A program made the translations under genes and the position numbers. Shown here one piece after another: positions 1,716 to 64,000 of a stretch of 64,000 bases of DNA; within the stretch, counting starts at the first letter, position 1, and every line of letters starts with the position of its first letter. Source of the DNA: Raillietiella orientalis (lineage: Eukaryota); contig JAYWIR010000127.1 in the NCBI GenBank assembly GCA_036172245.1, positions 1 to 64,000 on the forward strand. The letters run 5' to 3'. A model generated the notes under the pieces. The model did not search any database and was not told the origin of the DNA. It saw only the letters and a list, made by a program, of their open reading frames with translations.

Positions 1716-4700
1716 GTCCTGAAGCTCTGATGGAACTCCGCGGGCAGCCCGTTCTCACCTGGCGTCTTTTGTTTCTTGAGTCCTGCGATGGCGGAAGAAA
1801 CTTCCTTTAACGAGAAGGGCTCGTCGATACGGGCGCATTCCTCCTTGCCGATGCCGTGTGCACCCCGCGACAGAAGCAATTCTGAGAGGATTCTCTCCAT
1901 GATGGATTTGGCGTAGAGCAAGGAGAAGTGACGCCTTAGTGTTCGCCGTACTTCGGCAGGAGCGATGCATTCCCGGCCTTGGTCGTCGAGCAGAATTGCC
2001 GCTCCACACTGCCAGACCTGGCGCTCGGTCCTCGCCTTGTACTCTGCGAGGTGCCGGACTTCCGCACGTCTAGAGAAGGTGCGCGTATGCAGAAATTCTA
2101 AGATAATGGCCACGACTTCTCAAAAGCCGCGCGGTAGGAGCTGCAGAAGGAACCGGTTGCAAAACTCACAAACCGATCTTTTAAGATGGGCCCTGTGTGC
2201 GAGCCGCCGGATGACAAAGCCGCAAAGGAACTAGCGAAAATGTTCCGCCGCCTCCGAATGACTGAGTTATTCCGCCTGCATCCTTTAAACATTGTTCGGA
2301 GGTCCCTTGTTCGATGGGAGTAGCTCGAACTCCAGCCTGTCATACTCCGATAAGTAGGACGGCACCCTGACTCTCCTCCCCACTCGTGAGAGTAGTTGTT
2401 CATGGAGGTAGACGTGATCCACGCTCCCTTCCAGTCGAGTCTCGCCGGCTTCCTAGTTACGCGCTTGCTCTGACGCCGATGCCTCCTTAGCCGCGACCGT
2501 TCCGCCTGGGACCTCGTCGCGTCGGAAAACAGGTGGACGTTGAAGTCCCCTGAGACGAGAGGCGCTACTCTGGCTCCAGAGTTCCTGAGCTATTGGCTCT
2601 CCAGTTCGTCTAAAAACTCGATTCTTTCGTCGCGCCGAAGAAAGCCGCTCGGCGCGTAGACGTTCGTTAGGACGAGGTCGATTGAATCTGACCACTTGAG
2701 TACAAGTTGGCCCATTCGCCCTACCTGGTCGAATCGAACGCTGCGCACCGCTCCTGCCATCCTACTTTTTACGAGAAACCCGACTTTGCACGATTGTGCA
2801 GGACCTTCTTGCCAGTAGAGGGTGACACCCGCGCGCTGTTGAATTTCGGCAACCTCCGCGTGGGAGATGTGATGCATCTGCTGAAGGATCGCCAAGTCGG
2901 AATGTTGCAGGGGGCCTAAGACGCCGCGCCTCTTTCCGTCCCTACGCAGCATGTTCACGTTCCAACAAACTACGCTGAACCGACGAAAAGAGGAGACTTC
3001 CTGAATTAAGGCTAGGAAGGTGAGCACAGGTTTCTCGCCTTGACCGGCGTGTGGTCACGTGACAGAACAACTGATCTTCAAGACTGTACATCTCCATTCG
3101 AATCCGCCTGCTGGTTGGCGGGAGCTCAGAGGTGAGGCTTATCCCCTCCTCTTTGCTCCCCAGCAGCAGTTCCTCATCGGCAACCTCGCGATTACGGGTG
3201 TTCGGGAGGCGATTGTGCGGTTTCGGGCGGTTGTAGCGCTGTGTGCTCTTTCTGTCGGACTCTGGATCAGAATCCGACAGTCGAGGGCTTGCCAGGCGCT
3301 GCTGCTGTCTCCTGGAATTAGGGAAATCGTTCGCTGCCTGTTTCCTAGCGCTTTCTGCAACTGCGGCTGGGACTTTCATCCTCTTAGCCGCAGCAGCAGC
3401 TTTCCGCTCCATCTGCGAGAGGACGACTGCGCAGGAGGGAAGAATCGCAATCTTTTTATGGGAAGGTTTCGCGGCTTTCTTTCGCCCACTCACTTTCACA
3501 CAGAGCTGCGAAGACCTTGATGGTTTTTTTTAATTACCTTTCTCATCTGCATCCAGCCGTCTTCCTTCGCATCGCAGTTATCTTTGCCCTCCTGAGATGA
3601 CGCTGCGTCCGCGAATGTAAGAGGCGCTGCCTTGTCTGCCTGTTGATGTGCTGAATCCGCGCAGGCGTAAGCGACTCCCATAGCGATCGCGGAAGGCGCT
3701 GCCTCTTTCAGAACGGAGGATTGGCGCGTTGCGTTTGCGACCGCTGGAGGCACTGCTCTATTGGTTGTGCTCGCCTTAGCAGTTCCTTCTATGGCCGCAG
3801 TAGGCGCTGAGTCCGCGCGCGAGGACTGCGGGTTTGCCGGCTGTTTCAGCGCGGCACTCAGTGCCTGGGGCACCTTGGCCGCGGTAGCTTCAGACGGCGC
3901 GGTGTTCTTTGCCCGCGGCCGCGTTTCTCCCGTATCGGGCGAACGACCGCATTCCGCGCCGCTCGTCGAGGCCTTGGTACGAGGCTTCGCGGTCGTGATG
4001 CCGACAGTACGAGGCTCTTTGACCTTCGGCACAATGTCTCCTGCATTCAACAATTGGCTGCGAGGTCTTGTAGAAAGGTCGCATTTTTCGCGAGCTCCCT
4101 TCGGCACGGTAGCCTGAGGCTTCGCCGCAACGAGTTTTTTTAGGTTTTTCTCCCCTTCGATGGAGAGGGGAGGAAGAGTTTTCTGCGCATGCGCGCTCGA
4201 GGTTTTCGCAACGCTGTCCGAAGTTTTGAGGTTTCTTTCCCTCGATTCGCGGTGTTTATTTCGCGATGCGAAACGCGCTTCTTTCTTTCACTTTTCGTTT
4301 TTTAAAAAGAGCTCTGGGAACTTTTTTTTTGTGTGTCGGGCTCTTGGCAGTAACGGTCAGTGGCCGAGGGACACTTCGTAATGCGGTGACCCTCCGGCCT
4401 CCATTCCGCGCACAGAAGCGTTTGCCCCGCAAACCAGTCATTCCATTCACCTGCGGTCACGTGGGCATTGCCCGTTGATCCGCCGTCGTCAATCGCACTT
4501 GCGCGATCCCGCTGTGGTGGTCTTCGAAACCCTCAGCAGGGTATGGCAACCTCCGAGGCGCGTGAACGGAGGCGAATTTTTCAAGTGCCTCCATGACCTG
4601 GCGGTCCGTAAGGCACTTGCTCACTCCACTCAGCCGGACAACGAACGATTGATCCGCAGCGGTGGGGAGTATTTCCTGCCCACAAATGAGCAGCAGCGTG

Positions 4701-5150
4701 TGCAGCAAACGCTGCGTAAGGAGAGCGTCCTTACTGGACACCTCACAGTAGCCGCCACCACTTATGGACATGATGCACTCTAGCTGGCCTTTTTGAACTC
4801 CAATCCGTTGGAGTTCCTGGCCAATCTCGCGCCCATCTCGCTCAGGCAAAAGGACACTTACCTTATACCTGAGTAAAGGCGTGTAGTCATTTGCTACATA
4901 CGTTTGCAGCTCCAACGGATATAAAGCGAAGGTCCTATGGTAGCCGCGAGGGCAGCTACCTGGGCGAAGCTCCTCGCCGTCGGCGAGGACATAGCTCCTT
5001 GCTAGCAGCCGAAAACGCCATCTAAGGAACAGGTACCGTTCCTTTCTTGCGGCAGCTGTTCCTCTGCTCCCATTGCAGCACAGAAGCACAGCAGAACCAA
5101 AACACACAAGAGTCACCCTACCGCGGAGCGACGCGAAAGCACGTCCGTAC
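1716..5150 (-). mobile_element. 5' part of LINE: 5' end, degenerate ORF1 (~3000-5050), APE and linker (~1716-2990)
   Basis: VCWNVNMLR, TNVYAPSG and KKQKTPGENGLPAEF. ORF1 has CEVSSKD..SFVVRLSGV. The 5' motif GGACGTGCTTT is at 5136-5146. Confidence 0.9.
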
Positions 5151-15764: not shown

Positions 15765-18177
15765 GAGTCTCCCTCGCTAGGGAGAAGCTAAAGTTTCGTG
15801 ACTCAGGCGCCAACGCAAGCGGCTGCGGCTGAGTTGAAAGCTTACCTGGAGAAGGGTACAATCCCCCTCTACTCTTCAAAGTAGGCAACCTTTACTCCTT
15901 TCAGAGTGCGCGCGCTTTCTCGAAAGCGATGCACTCCCTCAAAGTACCCCAGGAGGAGCTCTTGGCGATGACCATCAGGAGTAATGGACAGTACGTTGAG
16001 GTGATTTGCAAAGAAGCAAGTCTTGTCCCGCGTCTGCTCCGTACACCTGTTTCTTTGGGGAATCGCCGGCTCCTCCCCATCACGGAGGATAGTTCTATCG
16101 TAATCCATCTCCTTGAAATCACCTTCCGGATGGCCAAAGAGGCTTTCCGAAAATAATTAATTAAATTTAGAACCTACCACACGTTGTGGAAAAAGCCGAC
16201 TTCGTTTTGGGAGCGATTTGCTGAATTGCGGTCAGGCTTCCGCGCGAATCACGGTCCGCGAGGGTTGCTCTTTACAGAAAAAGCTGGAGGTCAACGGCGT
16301 CCCCGTTGACATCTGGTAAGTTCGTAAGCCGCATTTCTGCGGGCATTCCAGCACTTCAGGTCACCTGAAAAAAAGGTGCCCCCACTTGCAGTGCAAGCAA
16401 TGCAAACAACCCGGGCACACTCTTCCGGTGTGCCCGCAAAATGAAGTCCGCGTCGCGTCCTCACGGAATGCGGAGAAGCGCGCGGCCAAAATATAATGGG
16501 TTCAGGCAGCCCAAGAGAGACCCCCGCTAACAAGATAACTATCGTGCCCCAAGTGAAGGTCAGCTCCGAGATCCCGGAAAACTCAAAGAAGGTCAAGGAG
16601 AGCGGCCAGGAACCTGGATGGCAGGTAGTAAAATCCAAGAGGCAGAAAAGCCTCAAGGAACCAAAAAAAAATCTTGCCAAACGCACCGAGAATTTGCCGC
16701 GTCGCGAAAAGATCAAACGCTGCTTTCTCGTCATCAAACGCATTCCTGCGGTCGAAGAGAGCGGCAAAATTACTCTCGTCGCTGCCGACTTTCAGCCCTC
16801 CGGCAAATTAATGCCGGAGGATATCGACCCGGCGGTGGCGTCCGTCGTCTAACGCATGCTCGAAGACGTCGCTTTTGAGCGAGCGGCGGAGCAGCTGGCT
16901 GCGTCCTTGTACTGTCTCCCCAAATCCGCGAAGAAGGCCTTAAGGCCTCGATCAAGAAGTCTTAGATTCGGAACTCTGACGTAGAGGGGGAAAACGCAGC
17001 CTGCGGCATCGCGGCCTCCCGCCCGAAGGCCAGTCGCACGAAGAAGGCTACCTGCAAAATTATTCCGTTCGTGGAAAAGGGAGAGATAATCGAGGGAAGC
17101 GAGCGTGCGAAGAAAGTGGGGAACTTCGGGGACTCTACTCGAGAGGTAACGCTACGCTGCGACCCCGGAGGGAGGGAAATGGTAGAGTCTGTGCCCCAGG
17201 TGCTTCAAGTGCCTGAGATGGCCGCGGTCCCCTTACTCGTTCCTCCCACCTGTCCCTTGACAGGTGCTGCAACGCCACGTTCCCAGCCTTCATGCCGGGA
17301 ATCTCCTGTTGTTGCCGTCTGCGAATTGCCTGTTGGAACGTTAACGGGCTAGGCGACGAAGGCAAGAGACGAGACGTGGCCTCCACCCCGGCATCGTTCG
17401 CCCTGGTAGTGCTGCAAGAGATACACGTGATCTTCGCGCACCAAGCAACGGAGATCGAGCTTATCTCGGGTGGACGGCTGATGTGGCGTTGCCTCGCCGT
17501 GAATTCTTGCGGTGTTCCGTTTCTGCTTCGGAATGCTGTGTAGGCTGCGGCAAAGGGCGTACGGTTCGATAGTGCCGGTTGCGTCGGAAAGTTGACCATC
17601 TGGTGGTCCGACTTCATCGATCCGGTCATTACCATGTGTACGCACCAAGCAGCAGCGACGCGCTAAGAACAAAGGCAAGGAGGGATTTCTTCCTTATCCT
17701 GAGGCGCGAATATCTGGACGAAGCGGGAGTGCGTAAAGCGCACCTAATCGCAGGTGACTTTAACCTTCGCCTGCTGTCAGGTGCGTCCGACACACTTCGG
17801 CACCGCGTGAAGGACCTTTGCGCAGAGATGCACACGCGCAACTGATTCCCAGGAGATTCAGAAATGGCCGACAGCATAGATCACGTCTTTCTTGAGCAGC
17901 ACCTATGCTCACGCGTGAACAAACGCGGCAAGTTACCGTCGGAACTGTCGGACCATTACCGGATCGTATTCGAGGTGCGCTCACGCGATAAAGTTCCCCC
18001 GTCATCTGCGTGGCGCTTACCGGGGGACTGGCTGAAACCTTCGAAAGCCGCGGAGCATCTCTGCGGATTCATACGAGGTTTCAGCTTGCAGACGTTTCAG
18101 GACTGGGGCCGCTTCAAGCGCTTGGTCCGGGAGTTTTGCGACGAGTTTCCTATGAATCTCCTGCCTTCAGGGCTTGG
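15765..18177 (+). mobile_element. 5' half of LINE (ORF1 + APE), subfamily A-like
   Basis: LAMTIRSNGQYVEVIC, GWQVVK, IACWNVNG, LQEIH, AGDFN, DSIDHVF and ELSDH. Ends at LPSGLG. Confidence 0.9.
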
Positions 18178-18792: not shown

Positions 18793-20362
18793 CTCTGCGC
18801 CAACGGCGAGGAGTTGGAGTGCCGTCGTTGCTGCACCATCCCCGGCTGCAGTAGCGGAGCAGACTGCCTACAACGACAGCGGCTACAAACCGTCACTGAT
18901 CTACAAGGTAGGCAGTGTGTACAATGAGAAAATTGCACGCTCCTTTGAAATGGAGCTGCAAAGACTGAATGTGAGGGAGGAAGACCTCGAGGGCCTCTCC
19001 GTCCTTAGTAAGGGGCAGCGAGTTGAGCTGACTTGCAGAGAGGCGAGTCTAGCGCAGCGCCTGCTAAACACCTTTATTACGGTGGAAGGCCGCAGGATCT
19101 TCCCTGTGACGGAGGACCGCTCCGTCGTGGTCCACCTCACGGGCGTATCACTCCGAATGGACAGAACCAGCGTCCATGAGGAGTTGTTAAAACACAGTAG
19201 AGTGCACCCGTATTGGGCCAAACCCAATGTCTTCCGAACGTACAAAGGACAATTCAGTGGGATGGCCGCTGCTCGCGTCACACTACCGGAAAATGGTGGG
19301 TTTACCCACAAACTAAATATCGGCGAAGAAAAAGTCGATGTTTGGTACGTGGGAAAGCTCAAATATTGTGGCCATTGCGATGCTACAGGGCACTTAAATA
19401 AACGGTGCCCTAACATCAAATGCCACTTATGTGGAAACAAGGGCCACATCCGCAAGGTGTGCCCAAGACGAGAAATCCCGGTTTCTCCCGCTGCGAAAAA
19501 GGCAAAGGGGAAACGGGCGGGAGAGACGAATACCATGGAGCAGGCCGTAAGGAGCCAGATGCCAGTCCCTAAGCCATCCCAGCAAACGTCGGTTGAAAGC
19601 ACTGCCGACGACGCTGGCGACGGCGAAGTCTGGCAGACGGTACAGCCCAGAAGAAAGCCCTGGAGTCCCGAACGAAGCGCGGGGAAAACAAAAACGCAGC
19701 GCGAAAAACCGTTCCGCGAAAAACTTCGCGCTTGTTTGGTAAAATTAGAGCGTTTGGCGGCACTAGATGCCGCCACCGGGGGAGCAATCCCCCTATTCTC
19801 GTCCGCCGAAGCTGCGACGGTCGATGGCGAACCCTCTGGGGAAGCAGAGAGGGAACCGCGCGCCGCGCTGGACGCGATCGAGGAGGCCGAATTCCAGCCG
19901 ACGGTGGAAGAACTCGAAACAGAACTGCAAGGCCGTGAGAAGAACTCCCGGAAAAGCTGACGAAGGCCGGCCGCGAGAAAGCCTCCGGATGCAGGTGAGA
20001 CCGAACCGGATGCCGGAAGTGCGTCCTCCTCAACGGATGCGCTACCAAAGTAGACGGGACGCGAGTCCCAGAATCCCAGGAGGCGCACACGGATCAAGAA
20101 GGAGGGGGATGAACTGGCACCCGAGGGGTAAGCCGGCAGCGTGGGAGGCGAGGGTGGGAATCTCTCATTTTCTGACAACGTGCAGCTGGCGACCCCCATG
20201 GAGGAGGAAGTACAGGTGGGTGAAACCCCCCTTCCTCTGCACGGCCATGACGAAGACTCGGCCCCCATGGAGGAAAGAGAAGCGGTGCGCGACGCACCTT
20301 CTCCTCCTAGCGTCCTGCCCAACAAGGTGGCGGGAGCCCCATTGCCACTTTCTCAGGATTAA
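18793..20362 (+). pseudogene. LINE ORF1 (RRM-like region + 2 CCHC), N-terminus truncated, internal stops
   Basis: The 408-aa track ORF 18734-19960 plus in-frame continuation to PLPLSQD* at 20362. Confidence 0.9.
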
Positions 20363-21223
20363 CACCTGGGATCGCCTGTCGCCGTAGGATCTGCATAGCC
20401 TGCTGGAACGTCAACGGGCTGCGCGACGACGGCAACAGGCGGGATACGGCCGACACCCTGCGCGACTTCGACCTGGCGCTCCTGCGAGAGATCCACGTAA
20501 TCACCGCGGAGAACGCCTAGGAGATCGAGAGGATCGCAGGTGGTCGTCTGTTTTACAGATGCGGCGCTCGCAACACCTGTGGCGTCGCCTTTTTTATAAA
20601 GCCAGCAGTCACCGCCTTCGTCAAGGACGTACGCTTCGACAACGACAGTCGTGTTGGCCAGCTCATCCTTAGGTGGTCCGACTCGATCGACCTTGTCGTG
20701 ACCAATGTGTATGCTCCGAGCGGAGGATGCGGGTACGAGGAACGTTCCCGGTTCCTCGAAACCCTGAAGCGCGACTGGATGGTGGATACAAACGTACGCA
20801 AAGTGCATCTGATCGGTGGGGATTTCAACATCCGCCTGCTCTCAGGTGTGCCTTGCGGGCAAACAGACGCAGCCAACGAGCTGTGCGTTGCTATGCGCAC
20901 GCAAAACTTGTTGGGGGACATAACGCACATGTCTTCCTTGATGCCGACCTGTGCCCACGGGTCGGCAGACGAGGGAAACTTCCGTCGACGCTATCGGACC
21001 ATTTGCGGTTGATATTCGAGGTTATGCCTCGCGACAAAGGACCACCATCAAAAGCGTGACGTCTGCCCGGGGACTGGACGCGCATCTCAGATGCGGTGGA
21101 ACTACTCCTCCAAGTACTGGGAGGCGTCATCCTCCGGAATCTTCAAGACTGGGACCGCATAAAGGCCTCGGTCCTCGAGTTCTGTGAGGAGTTCCCTGTA
21201 CACCGCCTGCCCCGGGGATTTAG
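18793..21223 (+). mobile_element. LINE 5' half (ORF1 + APE); continues at 26857
   Basis: Long ORF1 frame with CGHCDATGHLNKRC / CHLCGNKGHIRKVC, then APE CWNVNG..NVYAP..GDFN. Ends at LPRGF. Confidence 0.92.
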
Positions 21224-24200: not shown

Positions 24201-26856
24201 ATTCCTTAAAGATGACCCAGTCAGCGAGATTCCGGAGGGTGATGCCTCTCAGGAATTGGCGAACGTGTTCCTTCGCACCTTAGAGCCGCTTCCAGTCCCC
24301 AGGCAGCCGCCAGGCCCTTAAAGGGTGTCCTTTGTAGCGCGGGCATACCTCTGCGATTAACCAAGAATGGTCCGACAGCGTCGACGCAACTCTCCCCCGT
24401 TTGCCGACCCGCGAGCACAGGTCGGCATCCAGGAAGACGTGGTCCATGCTGCGGTCCATTCCCTCCACGTCCGCCAGCAAGTTATGTGTGCGCATGGCAG
24501 TGCACAGCTAGTTGTCCGTGCGTACTTCTTCTTTAAGCTCACCAGACAGCAGACGAAGATTAAAGTTCTCAGCTATCAGGTGTGCCTTCCGCACGTTCGT
24601 ATCGGCCAGCCATTCGCGCATAAGGGTTTCCAGCAGCCTGGTACGGTCGCTGTATCCCTTTTTTCCGCTCGAAGCGTATACATTCGTGACGATCAGGTCG
24701 ATCGAATCGGACCAGCTGAGAATCAGCTGACCGACCCGACCGTCGTCATCGAAGCGCACGCCCTTCACGGCAGCGTCGATGGCCGGCTTCACGAAGAACG
24801 CGACCCCGCAGGAGTTGCGGAGGCCACATCGCCAAAACAGGCGACCCCCCGCGATCGTCTCGATCTCCTGGACGTCTGCCGCGGTGATCAGGTGGATCTC
24901 CTGCAGCAGGGCCAGGTCGAAGTCACGCAGGGTGTCGGCCGTATCTCGTCTGTTGCCGTCGTCGCGCAGCCCGTTGACGTTCCAACTGGCCATGCGGATC
25001 CGAGGCGACAGGCGAGCCCAGGTGTTATTCCTGAGAAATTGGCTCTGCGGCGTCCGCCACCTGTTCGGGCGGGACGCTAGGTGGAGGGGGAGGGTCAGGT
25101 GCTGAAGGCACCTGGTTTCCCTCCTCCATGTGTAACGGCGCGTCGTCCGGTTCACCCTCAGGTGGGGTCGCGCCTCCCTGTTCGCCCTCCTCCATGGAGG
25201 CGGGCTGTTCAGGTTAGGCGACTACAGGGGAGACTTCGCCTCCCTGTTCACCATCCTTCATGGGGGTGGCCTGCTCGACAGCTTCCGTGAGTGGGAATTC
25301 CACCTCCAGGTTTCCCACGCTGGCGTCGGCTTCCAGCTTCTTCTCCTCGCTCGTGGAGGGGAGGCGTGGAGGGTTTTTAGGACTTACGTCCCGTCTACCG
25401 GGGTGGTTCATCCGAGGAGGAGAATGCACTTCCGGCCCCCAGGTCGAACTCACCTTCGGGGGCCTTCTTCGGCGGAGCCGGCCTGCGCACGGCCTTGCGT
25501 GAGGGGTTGTCACCTCGGCCAGAGTGACCGCGAGCTCCTCCGCCGCATTCGCGAAGGCGGCGTCCTCACCGTCGGCGCGCGCATCGCGCGGCTCACCTTC
25601 TGTGTAAACAGAGGGTTCGTCGTCATGAACCTCGAGCGCGGCGGAAACAGCTAGGGGAGGCTCGTCGCCCCAGGTGGCAGCCTCAGGAACGCTTACGCGA
25701 TCCAGTGCTACCGAGCACTCGCGGAGTTTTTCTGACAACGGCGCGGCTTTATTCTTTTTGCCGGCCGTGTTCTTGTTTTCCGTTTTCTTCAGTGGTTCTT
25801 TCATCACTTGTTTCTCCTTCCTGACCTTGACCAGTTGCCTTCCTTCCTCAACTCCCGCGTCTTCCGCGGTTTTATCCTCCGACGCTTGGGTGAGAGGAAG
25901 AGGAGGTGGCGGCTGGGGCCGGCCAGTTTCTCGCTTAGGTCTTTCGACCTTGTTCATTTTTTAAGCCTGCGCCTTTTTGGCAGCAGGTGGCACCAAGGAG
26001 GGGCGTTTAGGGCACACACGACGCACGTGTCCCTTAAACCCGCACAAGTGACAATGTTCGGGCACTGCTTGCGCAAGTGCCCTACTGCATTGCAAAAGCC
26101 ACAATAGCGGGGTTTCCCTACGTACCAGAGGTCGACGGATTCCTTCGTGACCTCGACTTTGTGGGGCAATTCAGCACTCTCATTGACAGTGACACGCGCT
26201 GCAGCCTGGTCTCCGAAATGGCTATGCAAGCCTTCCAAGATGGTGAGCTTTGGCCACAACGCGTGTATCTCTCCGTATTTCATCAACTCGTAATTGACCG
26301 CCGAGCGCGTCATCCGATTTGTTATTCCGGTTAGATGGACCACTACGGAGCGGTCCATGCTAACCGGTAGGATTTTCCGGCCATCCACATTCAGCGGGGT
26401 GTTTATCAGGCGCTGTGCTAAGGCTACGTCTTTGCAGACGACCTCCACGCGCTGCCCCCCGCTGAGTACGGAGAGGCCGTCAATATCCTCTTCTCTTACA
26501 TAAAAGTCCTGTAGCGCCTTACTGAAGGCTTAAGCTGTGCGATTATCAAACAGGGGTCCTACCTTATAAACCAGAGATGGCTTATATCCTGAGGCCCTGT
26601 AAGCCGCTTGCTCCGCCAAGGTTTCCGCGCTCGGCGCGGCCACCATGGCGCTCCACGTCCTTGGCGTTGTCGGGGATGATTCCACGGCGGACCCAGTAGG
26701 CCGTGGGGGGGGACTAGGCTTCCCTTCGCCTACCTCCATCGTGGTGTCCTCTGGCAGCGATGCCATCGGATACCAACGATGTGAAAAAACACACACTTTC
26801 CAAGAAGAAACCACTTCCCGGTACTTGTTGACGGAGCAACGGAAAAACACGTCCTT
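21224..26856 (-). mobile_element. Full-length (~5.6 kb) LINE, subfamily B, inserted antisense into the ORF2 of the + element
   Basis: 5' motif at 26841-26854, ORF1 start MASLPEDTTMEV (~26766), CCHC, APE, RT AYADD, zinc finger CARCGERESL and 3' hairpin at 21230-21256. Confidence 0.93.
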
Positions 26857-34205: not shown

Positions 34206-36316
34206 AATCTGGGCGTTCTCCGCAATGATCACGTGGATCTCCTGCAGGAGCGCCAGGTCGAAGTCACGCAGGGTGGCGGCCGTGTCCCGTCTGTTGCCGT
34301 CGTCGCGTAGCCCGTTCACGTTCCAACAGGCCACGCGTAATCGACAGCGACAGGCGAGACCAGGTGTTATTCCTGGGAAAGTGGCAATGGGGTTCCCGTC
34401 ACCTGGTCGGTCGGGACGGATGGAGGAATGGGGTCACAGCTCACCGGTTCTCCCTACTCAATGGGGGCTGAATCCTCGGCGGACTGCTACGGTTGAAGGG
34501 GCAGGTTTCACACACGTGCTCCCCCTCTCCCATGGGGGTCGATTCGTTGGCTGCTCTGGACGGCAGGGGGGAGCGGTGTTGAACACTCTGCTCTTCCTAC
34601 TCCATGGTTTTCTCCTCAGCAGGTCCCACCGTTGGAAGGGGGCGGCAATGACTTACCTTCTCCCTCTCCTCCATAGGGGTGGCCAGCTGCTCGGTAGCGG
34701 AGGGTGGGAAAATCCCTCTCTCCGTTCCTATGCTACCGGCTTCCCCCTCGGCTGCCGGTGCATTACCCTCCTTCTTTGTCGGGATGCGCCTTTTCGGATT
34801 CTTGGACTTCCGTCCAGTATTCTTCGTAAGCGCCTCCGCGGAGGAGAACTCACTTCCGGCATCCGGGTCGTGGTCACCTGTCAGAGGTGCCCTGGTCGCC
34901 GCCGGCCTTCGCAAGGCCTTTCGCGCTTCGTTCTCACGGTCCGCGAGTTCAGCCGCGAGCTCTTCCGCCGCGTGTTGGAAGGCGGCGTCTTCGATTGCGG
35001 GGAGCGCGTCGCTCGTCTCCCCCTCTCTTTGTGCAGAGGGTTCGCCTTCCGCGGTCGCAACTTCGTCGTCAACGAGAAGGGTAATATCTCCCTCGGTGGC
35101 GGTTTCGGAGACATCCACACGCTCAAAAGCGACCGAACATTCGCGGAGTAAAGCGCGGCGTTATCTCCTATTGAATTGAGATGTCGCGGGTTTCGCTGTC
35201 GGGCCTTCGGTTTTCTTGATCTTTTTGCTATTCGGCTTCGCCTTATGCCAGCCCTCGCTGTCTCCAGAGTCGTCGGGAGTATCGTCGATTGGAGCTTGCT
35301 GTACGGGTTCTGGAACTGGCAGTGGGTTCCGCTTCTCGGGTCCCTCCTTAGGCTTTTCCGTTCGCCCCGCGTGTTTCCCTTTGGCTTTTTTCAAGGCAGG
35401 GAGAGCCGGGGTTTCGCGTTTAGGACACACCTTCCGCAGGTGGCCCTTTCCGCCGCAATGGAAGCACTGGATGTGGGGGCATCCTTTTTTAAGGTGCCCT
35501 GGGGCATCGCAGTGTCAACAGTACTTGGACTTTCCCACCTAGAAGATGTCGACGACTTCGTTGCTGACATCTAGTTTGTGAGGTAGCCCAGCGTTTTCGT
35601 TGACGGTCACACGCGCTGCAGCCATGCCACCGAAGAGTCTTCCGTAACTTTGGAAGATGTTCGGCTTGGTCCATACCGCGTGTAACGTACCGAATTTACT
35701 TAATTCCTCCTTCACTCCGCTTTTTGACATGCGGAGGGACACTGCAGTAAGATGCGCTACCACAGAGCGATCCTTGGTAATCGGAAAGACCCTTCTGCCT
35801 TCCAGCATAAGGGGAGTATTCAGCAGGCGCTGAGCCAAGCTTGCAGCTTTGCAAGTTAGCTTCACCCGCTGACCCCCCTGAGCACTGAAAGACATTCCAG
35901 GTCCTCCTCTTTTACATCTACCCGCTGCAACTTCCTCTCGAAGTTGCGGGCAGTTTTCCCCAAAGACAAATTTCTTACTTTCTAAATCAAGGACGGCTCT
36001 TAACCTTCTTTAATGTAGGCGCGCTTTTCTGCTGCATATGCAGGAGATGGCTCTCCAGGACTTCGTCGTTGCCGAAGAAGGTTCTAAGGAGGCGGTCTCT
36101 TCCTTTTTCAAGAAGGCGGTTGCCCTCTCCTCCGTGGGGGCAGTTGCCCTCACCTTAATGTGTTGTGGAGAGGAACAATCCTCTCCCCCGCCGACTTCCA
36201 TCGCGGTGTCTTAAAGAATTTCGGCCATTGGACACCGCCGATGCAACAGACAAAAACACTAACGAAAACAAACGCTTAACAACAGGCGCAAAGGAGCGCG
36301 GAAAAAACACGTCCGC
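34206..36316 (-). mobile_element. LINE 5' part (5' end, ORF1, start of APE)
   Basis: 5' motif at 36301-36314, DRSVVAHLT, CCHC remnants and ACWNVNG..LQEIH. Confidence 0.9.
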
Positions 36317-38655: not shown

Positions 38656-41036
38656 CCAATTGAGATTCCGGAAAATGACGCCTCTAAGGAATTGGCAAAG
38701 GTGTTCTTTAGCACCGGAGAGCAGCGTCCAGTCTCCAGGCAGCCGCCACGCCCTGGAAGGGGGTCCTTTGTCGCGCAGGCATACCTTTACGATTAACCGG
38801 GAATGGTCCGACAGCGTCGACGCAACTCTCCCCCGTTTGCCGACCCCTGAGCACAGGTCTGCATCCAGGAAGACGTGGTCTTTGCTGCGGTCCATTCCCT
38901 CCACGTCCGCCAACAAGTTGCACGTGCGCATTGGAGCGCACAACTCGTTTGCCGTGCGTTCATCCGCTTCGGGCTCAGCTGACAGCAGACGGAGATTAAA
39001 GTCCCCAGCTTTCAGGTGTGCCTTCCGCACGTTCGTATCGGCCAGCCAGTCGCGCTTCACGGTTCTCAGCAACCTAATACAGTCACTGTATCCCTTTTTT
39101 CCTTTGGGGGTGTACACATTCGTGACGATCAGAACGATAGAATCAGACAAGCTGAGAATCATCTGACCGACCCGACCGTCGTCATGGAAGCGCATTTTCT
39201 TCACGGCAGCGTCGATAGCCGGCTCTACGAAGAACGCCACTCCGCAGGTGTTGCGGGCACCGCATCGCTTATACATCTGATCCCCGCGATCGACTTGATC
39301 TCCTCGACGTCTGCCGCGGAGATCACGAGGATCTCTTGCAGCAGGGCGAGGTCGAGCTCAGGCAGGGTGTCGTCTGTATCTCGCCTGTTACCGTCGCCGC
39401 GCAGTTTGTTGACATTCCGACAGGCCGCGCGAATCCGACGGCGACTTCCTAGCCCAGGTGTTACTCCTGGGAAAGTGACAGTGCGGCGTCTGCTACCTGC
39501 TGGGGCGGGACGCAAGGTGGAGGAAGAGGGTCAGGTGCTGAAGACAACTGGTTCCCCTCCACCGTGGGTAACTGCGCGTCGAGCGGGTCACCCACAGGTG
39601 GGGTCGCGCTTACCTGGTCGCCCTCCTCCATGGGGGCGGGCTGTTCAGGTTCGGCTACGGCAGGGAGAACTTCGCGCCCTGCTCACGCTCCTCCTTGGGG
39701 GTGGCCGGCTCGACGGCTTCCGGGCGTGGGAGTACCCCCTCCGCAATTCCCACGTCGTTGACGGCTTCCGTCTTCTCCTCCTCGCTGGGGAAGGGGAGGC
39801 GCCTCCTGGGCTTCTGAAACTTGCGTCTTGGCTTCCTGGTGGGTGCCTCCAAGAAGGAAGATGCACTTCCACCCCCTTGGGCGCACTCTCTTTCGGAGAC
39901 CTTCTTCGGCGGACCCGGCATCTGCATGGGCTTGCGTGAGGGGTTCTCACGCTCCACCAGCGTGGCCGTGAGCTTCTCCGCCGCCTTCGTGAAGAAGGCG
40001 TCCTCGCCGGCGGCGAGCGTGTCGCGCGTCTCACCCTATCAGTAAACAGACGGTCCGCAGTCGCGAACCTCGGGCTCGACGGAAACGGCGATGGAAGGCT
40101 CGTCGCCCCGGGTGGCAGCCTCAGGAACGCTGACGCGCTCCAGTGCCACCGCGCACTCGCGGAGGGTTTTTGAGAGCGGCCCGGGCTTTTTCGCCTTCCC
40201 GGCCGTCTTCTTTTCCGCATTTCTCCCCTTTTGTTCTTTAGGCCCCTTTTTGAGGCTCTTTCCTGGGCTTAACCAGTTGCCATCTTTCCTCCACTTCTGC
40301 TCTTTTGGGAGTGTTTTCCTCCGACGCCTGTGCGGCAGGGAGGGAGGCTGGCGGCTGGGAGCAGCCAATTTCAGATTTGGGCCTTCCGGTCAGCTTTCCT
40401 CGTTTTCCCTGGGCCTTTTTGGCAGCAAAGGGCACCGGGATGGGGCGCTTAGGGCACACGCGGCGAACGTGTATCTTCTATTCGCATAGTCGGCATACAA
40501 TATTTGGGCACCGCTTGCGCAAGTGCCTTACTACATTGCAGTAGCCACAGTAACGGGGTTTTTTAACCGACCAGAGGTCCACCGGTTCTTAGCAGACCTC
40601 CGGTTTGTGAGTTAGCGCACCAATATTTTTCTCGGTGACACGCGCTGCGTCCTGGCCTCCCAAAAGTGTATAATAGCCGTTAAAAATGGTATGCTTCGGA
40701 ACGTGCAGTCTTTCCATCTAACAGGTTGCCTTCCTTGTGGACAAATGAAGGCTTTTACCCGCCGGCCCTGTATGCAGCATTTTATGCCATGGTTTCCGCC
40801 CTAGACGCGGGCACCATGGTGCTCCTACTTCTCGCAATAGGCGACGAGGGTGATTCTTGGGCGGATGCCCCTAATTCTGTATGCCGTGAGAACGAACTAG
40901 CCTACCCTACGCCTACCGCCTTCGTGGTGTCCTCTGGCCGAGATGCCTTCGGACACCAACGATGTGAAAGACACACACTTCACAAACGAATCTGCTTTCC
41001 GGGACTCGTCGAAGGAGCACCGGAAAAACACGTCCT
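38656..41036 (-). mobile_element. LINE 5' half (5' end, internally deleted ORF1, APE), subfamily B
   Basis: 5' motif at 41022-41035, LQEI, TNVYTP, AGDFN, DHVF and TLSDH. Confidence 0.9.
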
Positions 41037-44675: not shown

Positions 44676-45653
44676 TCACGCTTTGTATTCCGCCAGCCTC
44701 TGGATGTCGGGGGTCCTGGCGTAACGACGATCCCGCAGGTAGGCTCGTTCGTTACGGACCCCGGTCTTAAAACCCGTTGGTAGGCGGTGCAGAGGGAACA
44801 GGTCTAGAAACTCCTGGACCGACCGCTTGAAGCGATCCCAATCCTGGAGTGTCCGCAGCCTTAAGCTCTGTATGAACGTGCCGAGATGTTCCGCCGCGTC
44901 CGGGAGCTTCAGCCAGTCCCCTGGGAGACGCCACGCTGACGAGGGGAAGCCCCTGTCGCGCGGATGGATCTCGAGGACTAGCGGGCGATGGTCGGACAGC
45001 TCGCACGGTAACTTGCCGCGCCTGCCCACGCGAGGCCACAGGTGCTCGTCAAGAAACACGTGGTCAATGCTGTCTTTCATCCCCGGTGCACTGGCCAACA
45101 GATTACAGGTGTGCATCGCCATACACACCTCGTTGACCTGGTCACGCTCGGCATTCTGCCCATCTGGTTTCAGGCGAACGTTGAAATCGCCTGCAACCAG
45201 ATGGGCATTCCGCACGCCTGTTTCGGTCAGCCAGTCTCGCCGGAGGGCAAGGAAAAACTCTTTCCTCGCCCTCCTGTTCATCAGGTCCTTGCCGCTCGGT
45301 GCGTACACGTTTGTGACGATCAGATCGATCGAGTCGGAACACCTGAGAGTCAGCTGGCCGACACGACCGTGATCGTCGAACCGTACGCCCCGAGCCGCGG
45401 CCTCGACGGCTAGCCTAAGCACGTAGGCAACACCGCAACTTTTCCCTCTTCCACACCTGTACCATAGCCGCCCTCCGGAGATCCGTTCGATCTCTTGCGC
45501 TTGTTCTGCAGAGACCACGTGGATCTCCTGCAGGAGCGCAAGGTCGTAGGACTCGAGAAGGGCGGCCATGTCTCGTCTCCTGCCGGCGTCTGTCATGCCG
45601 TTCACGTTCCAAACGGCGATGCGCAGACGACGGCGGGTGTAAATTCCCGGCAT
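44676..45653 (-). pseudogene. APE-type endonuclease domain (start of ORF2), intact domain frame
   Basis: 325 aa: MPG..AVWNVNG, LQEIH, TNVYAP, AGDFN, DSIDHVF, ELSDH. Confidence 0.95.
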
Positions 45654-46038
45654 TACTGTTGGGAAGATTAAAGTGTGGGGAAGCCCTCCTCTTGCGAGGC
45701 GGGTGGGATGTCCATGGGGGTTTCGGCCTTCTCAGGCACCTGAGGCACCTGTTCGGCCTCCACTTTTTCTATCCCCTCCGTGTCCGCGCGTGGGAGTCTC
45801 TCGGGCGACGGGTCCCGAGAGTTTCCCACGCTCATGGCACCCTCGTTTGCGGAAGGCATCTCTTCCCCTTCGACGGGGGAGACGAGCTTCCTTGGCTTTG
45901 TGGACTTACGTCCAGCCTTCTTGCGCGGTGCCGTGGAAACGGAGGTAGCGCTCCCGGCCTCCACCGCGGGGTCGGAAGTGGGGGACTCCTCAGGGGAGGC
46001 CGGACGCCTTACGGCCTTCTTGCCAGCCTTGGAGGTTT

Positions 46039-49000
46039 ACACCCGGGTACGCCCGGGGCGTTTATTTTTTAAAAAAAAACAACTCTACATCCGCGGTACA
46101 AGGCCCCGCTCACGGTCATATGCACTGGACCTGCCGGGACGCCGGGACGCAGCCCAGCGTAGCGTTCCTCAGCAGCGAAGGGGGATGGGGATAAAACAAA
46201 AAGAAAAATAAAAAACATAAACAGACAAAAAGAAGTTGGAGGGCAGGGAAGGGATCTCTGAACGCTGTGAGGAGGGCCCATCCGTTGAAGGAAGCCCTTG
46301 AGGTCCGTCCGTATATTCCCCAGTTGGGGCCATCCGGCAGCTCTCCGCATGAAGCGTTGGGCGTATGGGACGACATCCCTCGCGTGTGGACCCACTCCTT
46401 TGTTATTGGCGTCGCTCCATGCCGCCACGATGCCACGGACACAGCACAAGGCTGCAATGGCTGCGGCTGGCTGCAGTGCGTCCTTCACGAAGAGGGGCCG
46501 AAGAACGTCTCTGGGGGTGCTGCCCGTAGGGAGCCCTAGGGTCGCTTCGAACCGTTCCCAGAGGGGTCGGATGGCAGCACAATCCACAATAAGGTGGGGA
46601 AGCGGCTTTCGCTCCCCGCACCTGGCACACGCAGGATTCACAGCTCCCCTCGTCCAGTGGAAGCGGCGCGCGTTGCAGGGTAGACCCCAGTGCAACAAAA
46701 GCAACGCCGACTCTTGCCACTTAAGGGGCAGGATCCTGGATTCCTTTAATACCGGGGGCCACTTCAGCACATCCGTAGGGATGGCGAGCAGCTCGCCCCA
46801 TCTCATTAGTCCACGCGGTTGGACGCTCGGGGTCGTGGCGTCCGCCAGTTCTCCTGTGGTCCAGCCGATTAACATCTTCTCCCTAACTGCGATCTGGCAG
46901 GTGACTTGCCACCTCGGCTTCTGGCAATCCTGAAGCGCCCTCAGGAGGTAGGGCATCGCCGTAGCAAGGGGGGTCATCAACGCCCACCTGCGACTCCGAG
47001 GAAATTCCAGTATTTCCCGCAGGGTGCGGTTGGCGTATGGGCCGATTCGCAGGCAGTTCATGTGGTTTTCGCTCCTCCGGTTCAGCTTAGCCCATATGCC
47101 AGCAGACTCCTCTAACCAGGCGGAGGAGTTGGCGGGGCCACAAACCATCCAACCGTTTGTCTTCGCAGAGGTTGCTATGCGTCCGAGCATAAGGCCGCAT
47201 CTTCGGATCTTCCGGCCAGGGCACAGAAGAAACGACGCGAGTCCTTCGCATCGGGACACACGCCTGGCGAGGTGGCGGGCCGGAACGCACCAAGGGGTGC
47301 TCCACATCTTTGCTGCGATGGCGAGGGTTCGCCACCGCAGCTGGATTTCCACGTGCTCCAGCGTCAGGAGGCCAAGGCCGCCGTCCCGACGCGGAGCGCA
47401 CAAGTCCTGCAGAGAGACTCGGGGCCTCCCCTTGCCCCAAAGGGCGATGCGGAGGAGGTCCTTCGTCCTCTTTTTGCATTCTCTGGGGGCAAGGCAAACA
47501 AAGCAAGGGGCGGAGGATGGGGGCCGCAAAAGCGTTCCAAACCGCGGCCCGTTCCGGCAATTGAAACTTCCCTTCCAGGAACGGGCCGATCGCCGTCTCG
47601 ACTTTTTGAAAACAGCTAAACCACGCTTCCGCAGGGGAGTAGTCACCGAACGGCACACCAAGGTACTTGAGGCACCTCGCCGTGGGGATCCCCAGACGGA
47701 CCCAGTCCTGCTGCCCTGCCCACGCCGCACCTACTGGCACCACCGACGACTTCGCCCTGTTGACCTGCAGTCCGGTCCCACGGCTGAGCAGATCGAAGAA
47801 GTCTCCGACCGCCTTCGCCGGGGTGGACATAGGTAACAGGAGCAGAAGGTCGTCGGCATAGGCTGCTACGGCGGGCGTGCCGGGACACGAGCTAGGCAAG
47901 GAGGCCAAAGTCACCCTGTAGGCTCTCAGCACCAACTCAAAGTAGGTGCTGAAGAGCAGGGGACTCAGGCTATCTCCCTGCCTGATGCCCCACCGCACCG
48001 GCACGCCATGCACCTTCTGACCGCTGAAAGAGACGGAAATTATCGCATGGCGCCAGCAGGAGCGCAGGTAGTTGATCAAGGAGGGTGGGAAGCCCATGCG
48101 ACCCAGGAGCTCCAACAAAAGCCCCTGGTCAACACAGTCGAACGCCTTATGGAGATCGACTGTGAGCGCTAAGGCCCCCTTCCCCGCCCGGGAGTCCATT
48201 CCCTGCGCTGCTGGCGGCCCCAAAGTGGGGTTGCCGATTTTTCCTTTTCCTTCCTTTTGACACCTCTGCGCGTGCATCCACGTGCTCGCGAAGAAGAGGT
48301 TGGCATCCATACCTCGCCCGGGAACACCATATGTCTGCTCCGGGCTAATTATGGATTCTGCCACCTGCCTCAGACGCGAAGCCCATAGCCCGGCAATCAA
48401 CTTGGTGTCCGTATTCACAATCGTGATCCGACGCCAGTTGTTCAAATTCCTAAGGTCTCCCCCTTTCGGAAGGAGCCTCACTCTGGCTGACCGAAACGAG
48501 GCGGGAACATCGCCTTCGTCTCGGATCAGCCTTGTCAGCTGAAGCAGCAGGGGTGCCAGCTCTTCCGCGAAGCTCTGATAGAACTCCGCGGGCAAGCCGT
48601 CTTCCCCTGGAGCTTTCCGCCTCTTGAGCCTTTTGATACTGGCGAGAATTTCGCCGGTGGTAAAAGGCTCATCGAGGCTTAACGACTCCTCCTCCCCTAT
48701 TGCCGGGGCACCATCCGGAAGCAAGAGCCGAGAGGCATCTTGATCCGGGGGCGCCCTGGCGTAAAGGGAGGAATAATAACTCCGCACGAGATGCCGTACC
48801 GACGCCGGGGACGAACATTCCCGGTCCTGGTCGTCCAGCAAGCTGGCCGACCCGGATTGCAGGCTTGGCGTTCGGCCCCGGCGCGGTACTCGGCCAGGCG
48901 ACGGACATTAGGGGTTCGCTCGTACCTACGGGTCTGTAAATAGGCCCGATGGTTGCGAGGACCCTCGCCGAATCCGGAGGGCAGGCGGTATAGGGGGAAC

Positions 49001-51690
49001 TGCTCGCAGAACTCGCGGACCGATTCCTTAAAAAGGTCCCAGTCTTGGAGATTCCGGAGCGTGACGCCTCTCAGGTATTCGCGAAGGTGTTCCTTCGCAC
49101 CTGAGAGTCGCGTCCAGTCCCCCGGCAGACGCCAGTCTCTGGATGGCGGTCCTTTGTCGCGAGGCCGCATCTCGAAAATTAACCGGGAATGGTCCGACAA
49201 CGTTGACGCAACCCTCTTCCGTTTGCCGACCCGTGAACACAGGTCAGCGTCGAGGAAGACGTGGTCGATGCTGCGGACCATTCCCCTCTCACCCGCGAAC
49301 AAGTTGCGCGCACGCATGGCGGCGCACAACTCGTTCATCGCGTTCACCTGTGTTTCCGGCTCACCTGTTAGCAGGCGGAGATTGAAATCTCCCGCTATCA
49401 GGTGAGCCTTCCGCACGCTCGTGTTCGCCAGCCAGTCGCGCTTCAAGGATTCAAGCAGCCTAGTACGGTTGCTGTATCCCTTTTGACCGGTTGGGGCGTA
49501 CACATTCGTGACGATCAGATCGATCGAGTCGGACCAGCCGAGAGTCAGCTGACCGACCCGACCGTCGTCATCGAAGCGCACGCCCTTCACGGCAGCGTCG
49601 ATGGCCGGCTTCACGAAGAACGCGACCCCGCAGGTGTTGCGGATGCCGCATTGCCAGTACAGCCGATCCCCTGCGATCATCTCGATCTCCTGGACGTCTG
49701 CCGCGGTGATCACGTGGATCTCCTGCAACAGGGCCAGGTCGAACTCCCGCAGGGTGTCGGCTGTATCTCGCCTGTTACCGTCGTCGCGCACCCCGTTGAC
49801 ATTCCAACAGGCCGCGCGAAACCGACGGCGACTGGCGAGCCCAGGTGTTACTCCTGGGAAGATGGCAGTGCGGCGTCCGCCACCTGCTGGGGCGAGACGC
49901 TAGGTGGAGCAGGGGGGTCAGGTGCTGAAGGCACCTGGTCCCCCTCCTCCATCGGTGCCGGCGCGTCGGCCGGATCACCCGCAGGTGGAGTCGCGCCTAC
50001 CTGTTCGCCCTCCTCCATGGGGGCGGGCTGTTCAGGGTCGGCGCCTGCAGGGGGGACTTCACCCCCTGTTCACCCTCCTCCATGGGGGTGGCCGCATCGA
50101 CGGCTTCCGAGCGTGGGAATTCCTCCTCCGAATTTCCCACGCTGGCGACGGCTTCCGTCTTCTCCTCCTCGCTGGTGGAGGGGAGGCGCCTCCTGGGCTT
50201 CTGGGACTTGCGTCCCGACTTCCTGGGGGGTGCCTCCGAGGAGGAGGATGTGCTTCCGGCCTTCAGGTCTAACTCACCTTTGGGGGCCTTCCTCGCCGGA
50301 GCCGGCCTTCGCACGACCTTGCGCGAGGGGTTCTCACGCTCGGCCAGCGTGACCGCGAGCTCCTCCGCCGCCTGCGCGAACGCGGCGTCCGCGGCTTCGA
50401 CCGCCGCTATGTCGCGCGGCTCACCCTCTGTGTAAACAGAGGGTTCGCCGTCGCGAGCCTCGGGCGCAGCCGAAACGGCAAGGGGAGGATCGACGCTCCG
50501 GGTGGCAATCTCGGGAACGACGATTCGTTCCAGTGCCACCGTGCACTCGCGCAAAGTTTTCGAGCGCGGACCGGGTTTTTTCGGCTAACCGGCCGTCTTG
50601 CGCTCTTAGCTTTCCGCGGGTGGGAGTTTCCTCGGCTTTCTGGCCTCTACAAGCTGCCATCCCTCTTCGCCTTCCACCGTTTCAGAAGGTTTATCCTCCG
50701 GCTTACGCGCCGGAGGTTGAGGTGTTGGCAGCTTGTGCTGGCCCTTTTCTACTTTAGGTCTAGAGACCTTCGAAGCACGTTTCGCCTGCGCTTTTTTCGC
50801 GGCAGGGGGAACCGGGGTGGGGCGTTTGGGACACACGCGCCGAACGTGGCCCCGCTCCCCGCACAAATGGCATTGTATATTGGGACACCTTTTACGTAAG
50901 TGTTTCACGGTATCACAATGCCCGCAATACCGGGGCTTCCCTACATACCACAGGTCGACGTTTTCTTGCGCCACCTGTAGTTTGTGGGGAAGCCCACAAT
51001 TCTCCCGTACGGTGACCCGCGCTGCAGCCTGCCCACCAAAAAGGCTATCGAAGCCGTCGAAAATGGAAGGTTTCGGCCACAGTGCGTGCACCTCACCGTA
51101 CTTTCTCAGTTCCTCACCAACCGCTGACCGCGTCATGCGGCTGGTGATGCCAGTCATGTGGACCACCACGGAGCGGTCCATGGATACTGGCAGGATCTTG
51201 CGGCCGTCTACGTTTAGCGGCGCATGGATTAGGAGTTGAGCCAAGGTGACATCTTTGCAGACCACCTCGACCCGCTGCCCGCCGCTGAGGACGGAGAGGC
51301 CGTCCAGATCCTTCTCTGTAACATTCGCGTCCTTCAACGCTTTGTTGAAGGCGCGCGCTGTCCGGCCGTCGAACAAGTTGCCTACCTGGTATACAAGCGA
51401 TGGCTTGTACCCGGAGGCCTTGTATGCGGCCATCTCCGCCATGGGTTCTGCGCTGGGCGCGGCCACCATGGCGCTCCATGTCCTCGGCGTGGCCGGGGAT
51501 GATTCCGGGGCGGCTGACCCTGCTCCAGTAGGCTGTGGGGGCGAACTAGCCTCCCCCACTCCCACCTCCATCGCGGTGTCCTCTGGCGTCGTGGCCATTG
51601 GACACCGACGATGTACACAAAACACCACACGGAAGAAAAAGCGCTTTCCTACTACTCTTTGGGGAGTGAAGGAAAAACACGTCCTCCATC
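46039..51690 (-). mobile_element. Full-length (~5.65 kb) LINE, subfamily B; best-preserved copy, inserted in sense orientation into ORF1 of a subfamily A element
   Basis: 5' motif at 51671-51684, ORF1 MATTPEDTAMEV, ORF2 in three long overlapping frames and a perfect hairpin CCCGGG-CGTA-CCCGGG. TSD-like 46026-46038 / 51693-51705. Confidence 0.94.
46250..49850 (-). pseudogene. ORF2 (APE-RT-CCHC), broken by about two frameshifts
   Basis: Track ORFs 48697-49791 (APE), 47087-48841 (RT, AYADD, KYLGV) and 46069-47730 (CARCGERKPLPHLIVDC). Confidence 0.94.
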
Positions 51691-63700: not shown

Positions 63701-64000
63701 GGAATAAAGTGAACTGCGTGCAATGAGAGCAGAAACGGTCAACACAATGGCTAGGCAGGAAAACAAACAACGACACTACTGATATATTTCTCCTTGCACG
63801 CGACCTTCTTTGAGCTGGCTCTGCCGAAGGGAGAAACATTACATCGAAAAGGCCCTTACGGGCTCTGGAGCATCAAGTAGCCTCTCGCGACTCCGAAATG
63901 AAATACTTCAGCGCGACAAAATCGCTTGGACCGGACCGGGGAGGGCACCTCGAAGCTCCTAGGGGGAAAGTGGTTTTCAGTGAGGAAGAGTTGGGAAGGG
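57790..64000. other. AT-richer, apparently non-repetitive flank; no confident gene call
   Basis: No LINE motifs, only short ORFs, and an abrupt compositional change. Confidence 0.6.

Follow-up and report, generated by a model that had tools for sequence, protein, structure and literature searches.

How is the second open reading frame (ORF2) of a two-ORF retrotransposon translated once its start codon has been lost? The question is raised by a 64,000-nucleotide (nt) stretch of the Raillietiella orientalis genome, here called the window (positions 1–64,000 of the forward strand of contig JAYWIR010000127.1, assembly GCA_036172245.1, a genome of 210 Mb). The window is filled with nested two-ORF long interspersed nuclear elements (LINEs), in which nine ORF2 starts were counted, and five of its ORF1/ORF2 junctions belong to a lineage, B, whose ORF2 has no AUG. 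The loss is real, lineage-wide and under selection, and is not decay. The B lineage must make its ORF2 enzyme without an ORF2 AUG, most likely by a ribosomal restart at the ORF1 stop codon and possibly by splicing of ORF1 to ORF2. How LINEs translate ORF2 has been described as a long-standing open question (PMC3894237).

Loss of the ORF2 start codon in the B lineage

A sequence-only reading of the window had described five B-type motifs, each with the ORF1 stop codon in a hairpin loop and with ORF2 (T-P-G, followed by WNVNG) in the −1 frame. All five were found at the positions and on the strands it gave, and the placement of the stop and the reading frame were confirmed. The features of the B1 copy and the other four junctions are as follows; D1 and D2 are donor-like sites discussed below.

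49848..51598, minus strand: B1 ORF1, with zinc knuckles; 583 codons in intact copies, interrupted in the window copy
46069..49848, minus strand: B1 ORF2, encoding an APE endonuclease, a reverse transcriptase (RT) and a zinc domain at the C-terminus; subfamily length 1198 codons, with the window copy frameshifted
49848..49850, minus strand: ORF1 stop codon TAA of the B1 copy, from the sequence and its copies
49846..49848, minus strand: ACA (Thr) at the place of the sister-family ORF2 ATG, 14 codons before WNVNG
20352..20370, plus strand: B2 junction (D2 at 19995, D1 at 18908)
25017..25035, minus strand: junction of another B sub-lineage (D2 at 25453, D1 at 26562), with a 1-nt deletion before WNVNG
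34359..34377, minus strand: B3 junction (D2 at 34877)
39453..39471, minus strand: decayed B1-like junction (D2 mutated, at 39890)

Searches with five window junctions, together with longer fetches, gave 256 matches, of which 194 remained after duplicates and short matches were dropped. Of these, 178 were assigned to 12 families, and they represent best hits to the queries instead of a random sample. Among the 92 copies of subfamilies B1–B4, the start codon position is occupied by ACA (81), ACC (8), GCA (2) or AAA (1), and in no copy by ATG. The eight sister families have ATG at the same codon, 14 codons before WNVNG, in 85 of 86 sampled copies. A genome-wide pattern for the exact B context returned 240 matches, 222 of which read TAA-CA; the first 100 matches listed comprise 88 with CA, nine with CC, two with AA and one with TA. 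When the pattern was loosened slightly to find TG or CG at the B junction, ATG was absent and ACG occurred once. ACA is also present in 30/30 of the closest copies of the 49840 element and is, with the 222 of 240 exact matches, the state of young copies, as the sequence-only reading required. It is not a dedicated start codon, since ACC is fixed in B4, a genuine subfamily, and GCA is found in two B2 copies.

The ORF1 stop codon (TAA in 90/92 B copies, TAG in 2/92) stays at the ORF1/ORF2 overlap in all 92. Across the 30 closest B1 copies and the B subfamily majorities, no conserved in-frame AUG was found upstream of or near the junction, so the claim to that effect survived; the in-frame ATGs encountered are private, one at −5 in 1/30 copies and one at codon 11 in the copy at 25017. 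The first in-frame Met in the subfamily majorities is at codon 170 (B1), 78 (B2), 63 (B3) or 100 (B4). The ORF2 endonuclease resembles solved APE/L1 and related endonuclease structures, and because the fold match begins at residue 10, each of these Met codons is located inside the fold. Upstream of the junction, the ORF2 frame is open for 12–17 codons before the ORF1 stop in most B copies and is closed 17 codons upstream in 29/30 of the closest B1 copies. It remains open through the end of the 549 codons compared in 10/30 of the latter, and locus L179 contains an unbroken 1195-codon ORF2 beginning at ACA.

Unrooted nucleotide and protein trees both place B apart from every ATG family, at 100% support. 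ATG is probably the ancestral state, as suggested by the deep branch of families D, F, G, H and I and by a distant family at 10793.

Selection on the AUG-less ORF2

Between B subfamilies, ORF2 codons 0–62 have dN/dS values of 0.06–0.14 in 6/6 pairs (p ≤ 6e-5, dS 0.29–0.52), with B4 represented by few copies. Codons 0–13, which begin at the position of the lost AUG, also show conservation at the protein level (dN/dS 0–0.57). Within B1, 14 long copies were compared, one of which gave no alignment above the cut-off: the ratio of silent to replacement changes in ORF2 is 48:26 for shared changes versus 148:285 for private ones (p = 1e-6). The excess of silent shared changes fits an ORF2 that acts in cis. 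Most individual B copies contain stop codons or frameshifts, and the ORF2 lesions among the 14 long B1 copies are private. Neutral evolution of ORF2, which the sequence-only reading had named as fatal to its proposal, was thus not found either between or within B subfamilies.

RNA structure at and below the junction

Two stem-loops are predicted around the B1 junction.

49840..49858, minus strand: B1 junction hairpin, 6 base pairs (bp) and a 7-nt loop, by folding
49784..49819, minus strand: downstream stem-loop spanning the codons for R-x-A-C-W-N-V-N-G-L-R; the B1 majority pairs over 16 bp, and the window copy has one extra mismatch

The junction hairpin is formed on folding in 4/5 B copies of the window, and the five copies inherited it from a single ancestor. 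By itself it is modest: among all codon positions of the elements, 2–3% are enclosed by a perfect 6-bp stem, and the folding energy of the junction ranks in the top 3–29% of like-sized segments in seven copies. Four families (A, F, G and H) have a GNRA tetraloop as the loop. The stems of A and B are not compensatory forms of one helix: their registers are one base apart and no covariation was found in either register across 12 families. In the C family, a perfect 8-bp hairpin is found just upstream of the junction (window ~17245–17265, plus strand), and a related stem is predicted upstream of the junction in B1.

The second stem is stronger. It comprises 14–17 bp, begins ~30 nt after the ORF1 stop and covers the A-C-W-N-V-N-G-L codons. 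In 9/12 families (all except A, C2 and I), it is more stable than synonymous resamplings (p ≤ 0.02). Its energy in B1–B4 is between −18.6 and −29.3 kcal/mol, placing it in the top 0.3% of compared segments in B1, the top 1.3% in B3 and the top 9% in a B2 copy. Pairing is retained in 77% of cells versus 35–43% when the register is slid, although related sequences can exceed shuffled ones in such a comparison without any structure; covariation is weak to moderate.

Splice-like signals in ORF1 and at the junction

Splicing is a third option that the sequence-only reading had missed. Conserved acceptor-like and donor-like sites are present in the B elements in the right phase.

49854..49868, minus strand: candidate 3′ splice acceptor, pyrimidine tract and CAG; the intron would end at 49854, in phase 0 relative to ORF1 and phase 1 relative to ORF2
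50272..50280, minus strand: D2, B-specific donor-like site in phase 1 of ORF1; first intron base 50277, 424 nt from the acceptor
51380..51388, minus strand: D1, phase-0 donor-like site in the Y-[K/Q]-V-[G/S] motif of ORF1; first intron base 51385, common to all families seen

The candidate acceptor coincides with the 5′ arm of the junction hairpin. The A and G of its YAG are invariant in 12/12 family representatives, even though this A is silent in the ORF2 frame and, in the ATG families, unpaired. On simple, home-made splice-site scores, the junction AG ranks first among 89–100 AGs in B1–B4 (with one or two ties); its rank is two or three in A, D, F, H and C2 and seven in C. Between D1 and a point 600 nt into ORF2, none of 140–149 AGs outscores it in B. 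The site resembles the acceptors of host actin genes, which look animal-like and have GT-AG introns with mostly pyrimidine-rich acceptors. A yUnAy branch point was not found within 60 nt of the acceptor in B2–B4, and in B1 it occurs only at −64; in A and D such a motif is located at −9.

D2 is found at the homologous place in all four B subfamilies, and neither A nor C2 has a donor-like site there. It reads AG|GTGA in 87/91 B copies with an alignable region (8/99 had none), while the preceding codon encodes K, T, A or E. Over 25 B clusters it is the most conserved 6-nt segment, tied for first of 295 and first of the 98 in its phase, bearing in mind that D2 was chosen from shared GT sites. On four lineages alone it is unremarkable (invariant third positions 14/78 and 24/43), and its donor scores are weak in B3 (2.7) and B4 (3.1).

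D1 is preceded by G in 15/15 lineages and reads GTA or GTG in 15/15, with GTA in 13, versus 12% GTA among ORF1 Val codons. Where D1 is kept, four-fold sites agree in only 34–50%, and divergence is near-saturated. Genome-wide, 430 of 433 pattern matches have GTR and three have GTY, the pattern excluding the G-type clade. In that clade the +3 position is free, but AGT follows in 17/21 copies; the prediction that family G had lost D1 was not borne out, and a donor-like D1 is kept. D1 and D2 also resemble E-box/Zelda-type motifs.

Genome pattern searches anchored at the acceptor or at the donor, each covering part of the possible joins, found no spliced genomic copy. The candidates examined (L211, L212, L225–L228 and L229) proved to be decayed copies, apart from a single insertion and a 21-nt deletion at a microhomology. 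A donor at the ORF1 M-E-V motif was rejected because it is not conserved, and long-range pairing between D2 and the junction loop was rejected by inspection, being broken by the ACC of B4. A genome search with the Rfam SL1 model for trans-splicing gave no match, as did the control of that search.

Possible routes to ORF2 translation

AUG-independent termination-reinitiation on unspliced RNA is the best single explanation, at a probability of about one half; this and the gradings of the alternatives are judgements, not computed values. The ancestors of these elements would have coupled ORF2 to ORF1 through a UAAUG or UGAUG stop-start overlap and a stem-loop ~30 nt downstream, as in SART1. The AUG would have been lost once in the B clade, to ACA, which later became ACC or GCA. 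ORF2 would still be translated from full-length bicistronic RNA: a ribosome ending at the ORF1 UAA would stay on the message, perhaps held by local structure to which either stem may contribute, and would resume translation in the −1 frame, at the stop or immediately beyond it, with no AUG required, as reported for engineered human L1. This reading is preferred because the ancestral overlap, the stem, the cis selection, the lack of spliced copies and the L1 precedent all fit it. It also retains the non-AUG restart proposed in the sequence-only reading. Several observations weigh against it. Compared with AUG, ACC has two changed positions and GCA three. A UGGGA motif of the termination upstream ribosome-binding site (TURBS) type is missing within 120 nt upstream of the stop in 12/12 family majorities. 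A stem ~30 nt past the stop lies beyond the spacing that best aids weak starts. Three ATG families (D, G and H) have a downstream stem of equal strength, so it is not a B-specific compensation for AUG loss. Finally, a restart does not account for the conservation, at nucleotide level, of D1, D2 and the junction YAG.

A minor fraction of B RNA could be joined from D2 to the junction CAG, so that ORF2 is read from the ORF1 AUG as an ORF1–ORF2 fusion, an explanation that is unlikely but by some way the most credible of the alternatives. The splice would remove 360–505 nt together with the ORF1 stop frame, leaving ORF1 after approximately codon 440 in B1; ACA would be an ordinary internal Thr codon, and unspliced RNA would supply free ORF1 protein (ORF1p) and the only copied template. 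A phase-1 donor, which such an in-frame fusion demands, was predicted before D2 was found, and the constancy of D2 beside a varying residue, its lack of a counterpart in A and C2, the top-ranked, actin-like junction AG and the silence of ACA to ACC in the ORF2 frame are all in keeping with it. On the other hand, no spliced retrocopy accompanies at least 240 unspliced copies, B has no clear branch point, and the donor scores and four-lineage comparison given above are weak. Phase-0 donor-like sites are found closer to the acceptor than D2, at a distance of ~150 nt from the stop, and A, F and H also have donor-like sites in phase 1. Cis selection on ORF2 is also harder to explain if ORF2 protein (ORF2p) and template come from different RNAs. 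A splice from D1 is improbable. Being in phase 0, it would leave an upstream ORF of 70–140 codons ending at the natural stop, where ORF2 would restart, at the AUG in the sister families and without one in B. The conservation of D1 in 15/15 lineages and 430/433 matches favours it, as does the ending of the phase-0 join at TAA or TGA in 11/12 families, including A, whose full ORF1 stop is inside the would-be intron. Family G, however, keeps D1 but has lost this stop, and its joined frame would run ~150 codons over the ORF2 AUG; an exon-1 AUG in frame with ORF2 exists only in B1 and part of B3, and no D1-spliced genomic copy stands against the 433 unspliced ones. By likeness to the L1 donor kept for a RUNX3 site, D1 may instead work as a promoter element or bind U1.

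A −1 ribosomal frameshift within the last 12–17 ORF1 codons or at the stop, the recoding option of the sequence-only reading, is marginally less probable again. The −1 frame of ORF2, its openness before the stop in most B copies and the stems that follow would suit such a fusion, but none of the 12 families has an X XXY YYZ slippery heptamer in the final 60 nt of ORF1. The last ORF1 codon varies (GAG, GAT or GAA), with probably poor −1 re-pairing for two of the three, and the strong stem is too distant for the usual spacer of 5–9 nt. On a par with frameshifting is a 40S subunit that scans a few codons after termination and starts at a near-cognate codon before the first beta-strand. ATT or ATC at codon 9 in B1, B2 and B4 and GTG at codon 11 in B3 and B4 are candidates for this, but no such codon is common to all four B subfamilies; codons 0–13 are conserved as protein, and the candidates are located at the foot of the strong stem. 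The least probable account, largely refuted, is that B is non-autonomous or that ACA represents mutational decay. Most individual copies do carry stops or frameshifts, but these lesions are private, and purifying selection acts between and within the B subfamilies. Decay of ACG through its CpG was rejected, with one ACG and no ATG versus 222 ACA.

Relation to known systems

The telomeric LINE SART1 of Bombyx mori is reportedly subject to UAAUG translational coupling, as set out by Kojima and colleagues in 2005. The coupling is treated in PMC3894237 and PMC2881922, and a requirement for downstream RNA structure is described in PMC5972666 and PMC10275272. SART1 resembles the present elements as a two-ORF APE-RT LINE with a stop-start overlap (here in the sister families) and RNA structure after the stop. 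It differs in keeping its AUG, whereas the B clade lost it and later diverged to dS 0.3–0.8; in addition, the real ORF1 stop of two sister families has shifted upstream, by 15 nt in A and by 6 nt in G.

Human L1 ORF2 is said to be translated unconventionally, its independence of AUG being known from engineered mutants (a finding attributed to Alisch and colleagues in 2006). Human L1 ORF2 translation is described as AUG-independent in PMC11485995, and is also covered in PMC5972666 and PMC2881922. In L1, and probably in B, ORF2 is made after a long ORF1 without a strict need for AUG, but L1 has a 63-nt spacer and a natural AUG, while the loss in B is natural and fixed and there is no spacer. The splice product SpORF2 of human L1 is described as using a donor in the 5′ untranslated region (UTR) and the ORF2 AUG, as a side product (PMC2896524), and spliced integrated retrotransposed elements (SpIREs) as comprising ~2% of full-length human L1s (PMC5860796). 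Like these, B elements have internal splice sites that could yield an ORF2-producing RNA; the B candidate donor differs in lying within ORF1, which would supply the start codon, and in having no spliced copy. Spliced L1 RNAs without working ORF1p are reported to retrotranspose poorly in cis (PMC5860796), which weakens the lack of spliced B copies as evidence. The same source describes a conserved human L1 donor that is rarely used and is kept because it overlaps a RUNX3 site (PMC5860796). Caliciviral termination-reinitiation is described as tolerating start-codon changes (PMC5972666). The TURBS of caliciviruses and influenza B thus offers a restart beside the stop with start-codon tolerance, but its UGGGA is not present upstream in any of the 12 LINE families.

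These junctions constitute a new variant of LINE ORF1–ORF2 coupling and add splicing as a new rival mechanism. They provide a natural experiment in which eight ATG families, with the stop overlapping or 6 or 15 nt away, exist beside a successful AUG-less clade with the same short junction. Either outcome would be unusual, namely a naturally fixed AUG-less ORF2 or an ORF2 whose expression depends on splicing; no report of either in a LINE was found in the literature searched, with subscription papers and Repbase notes outside its scope. If the fusion by splicing were true, a LINE clade would have replaced the ORF2 start codon by a spliceosomal intron, splicing would set the ratio of ORF1p to ORF2p, and splice signals (D1 and the acceptor) would have been in use throughout the family well before the AUG disappeared.

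Junctions in the sister families

The sister-family junctions in the window are as follows.

45644..45670, minus strand: A-family junction, with the real ORF1 stop at 45668–45670, then TAATG; this A copy is the host of the inserted B1
17280..17301, plus strand: C-family junction, in which TCATG is a decayed TAATG
2997..3018, minus strand: D-family junction, in which ATT is a decayed ATG (ATG in 14/15 copies); D1 at 4861

Both motifs that had been assigned to A-type junctions are present, but the TAA of TAATG at 45644 is not the ORF1 stop, since ORF1 ends 15 nt upstream (29/30 copies). Nor is TCATG at 17280 an A-type variant; it is a single decayed copy of family C, in which 25/26 copies have TAA. 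An overlap of UAAUG or UGAUG whose stop is the ORF1 stop is present in C, C2, D, F, H and I. It is missing in B, which lacks the AUG, in A, where the stop lies 15 nt farther upstream, and in G, in which ORF1 ends at a TAG 6 nt before the ORF2 ATG. Families G and H (L182, L185 and L188) have an extra in-frame ATG, which precedes the usual one by five codons and overlaps the ORF1 end. At L157, one copy of a further family reads ACG at the start position of its minus-strand junction (near 2464, counted on that strand), without the junction motif that the others share; it is possibly a second AUG-less lineage.

Element architecture and insertion sites

The 1195-amino-acid ORF2 contains an APE endonuclease, an RT and a C-terminal zinc domain (Pfam Exo_endo_phos, RVT_1 and a weak zf-RVT). 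ORF1 is separate, with 572–673 codons and two visible CCHC zinc knuckles, although its zf-CCHC profile match is weak and below the cut-off. By this domain content the elements are APE-type two-ORF retrotransposons lacking long terminal repeats, of L1/Tx1 architecture. A homologue search found proteins 21–35% identical, nearly all unnamed, and gave no clade placement. An Rfam scan of the window had zero matches at gathering scores. The 5′ UTRs of B1, B3 and F elements are only ~80–90 nt long, so promoter elements may reach into ORF1; their 5′ ends (window ~51684, L178, L180 and L164) have a common short motif followed by a T run. From 58000 to 64000 in the window, GC content falls to 43–49%; LINE matches stop near 57800, and the ORFs include 62613–63107 on the minus strand.

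The window B1 element (46069–51685, minus strand) is inserted in the ORF1 of an A element (53128–51690 and 46036–45668) whose junction is at 45644. At L151, L152, L153, L160, L162 and L163, B1 is likewise in the sense direction at one site of an A-type ORF1, and the B1 and A junctions of these nested loci are 4187–4200 nt apart. Family F is found at one place in the B1 endonuclease in L154 and L164 (B1 ORF2 base 469) and also in L002, L015 and L029, which accounts for a recurring ORF2 open length of 187 codons. The B3 copy L211 (G000:C40) has its start precisely within the junction hairpin and is joined there to a piece of ORF2 in antisense orientation, a 5′ truncation or an insertion at the hairpin. 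B copies L011, L213, L215, L216, L217 and L219 break at approximately ORF2 codon 63 into the same foreign sequence, which is another fixed insertion site.

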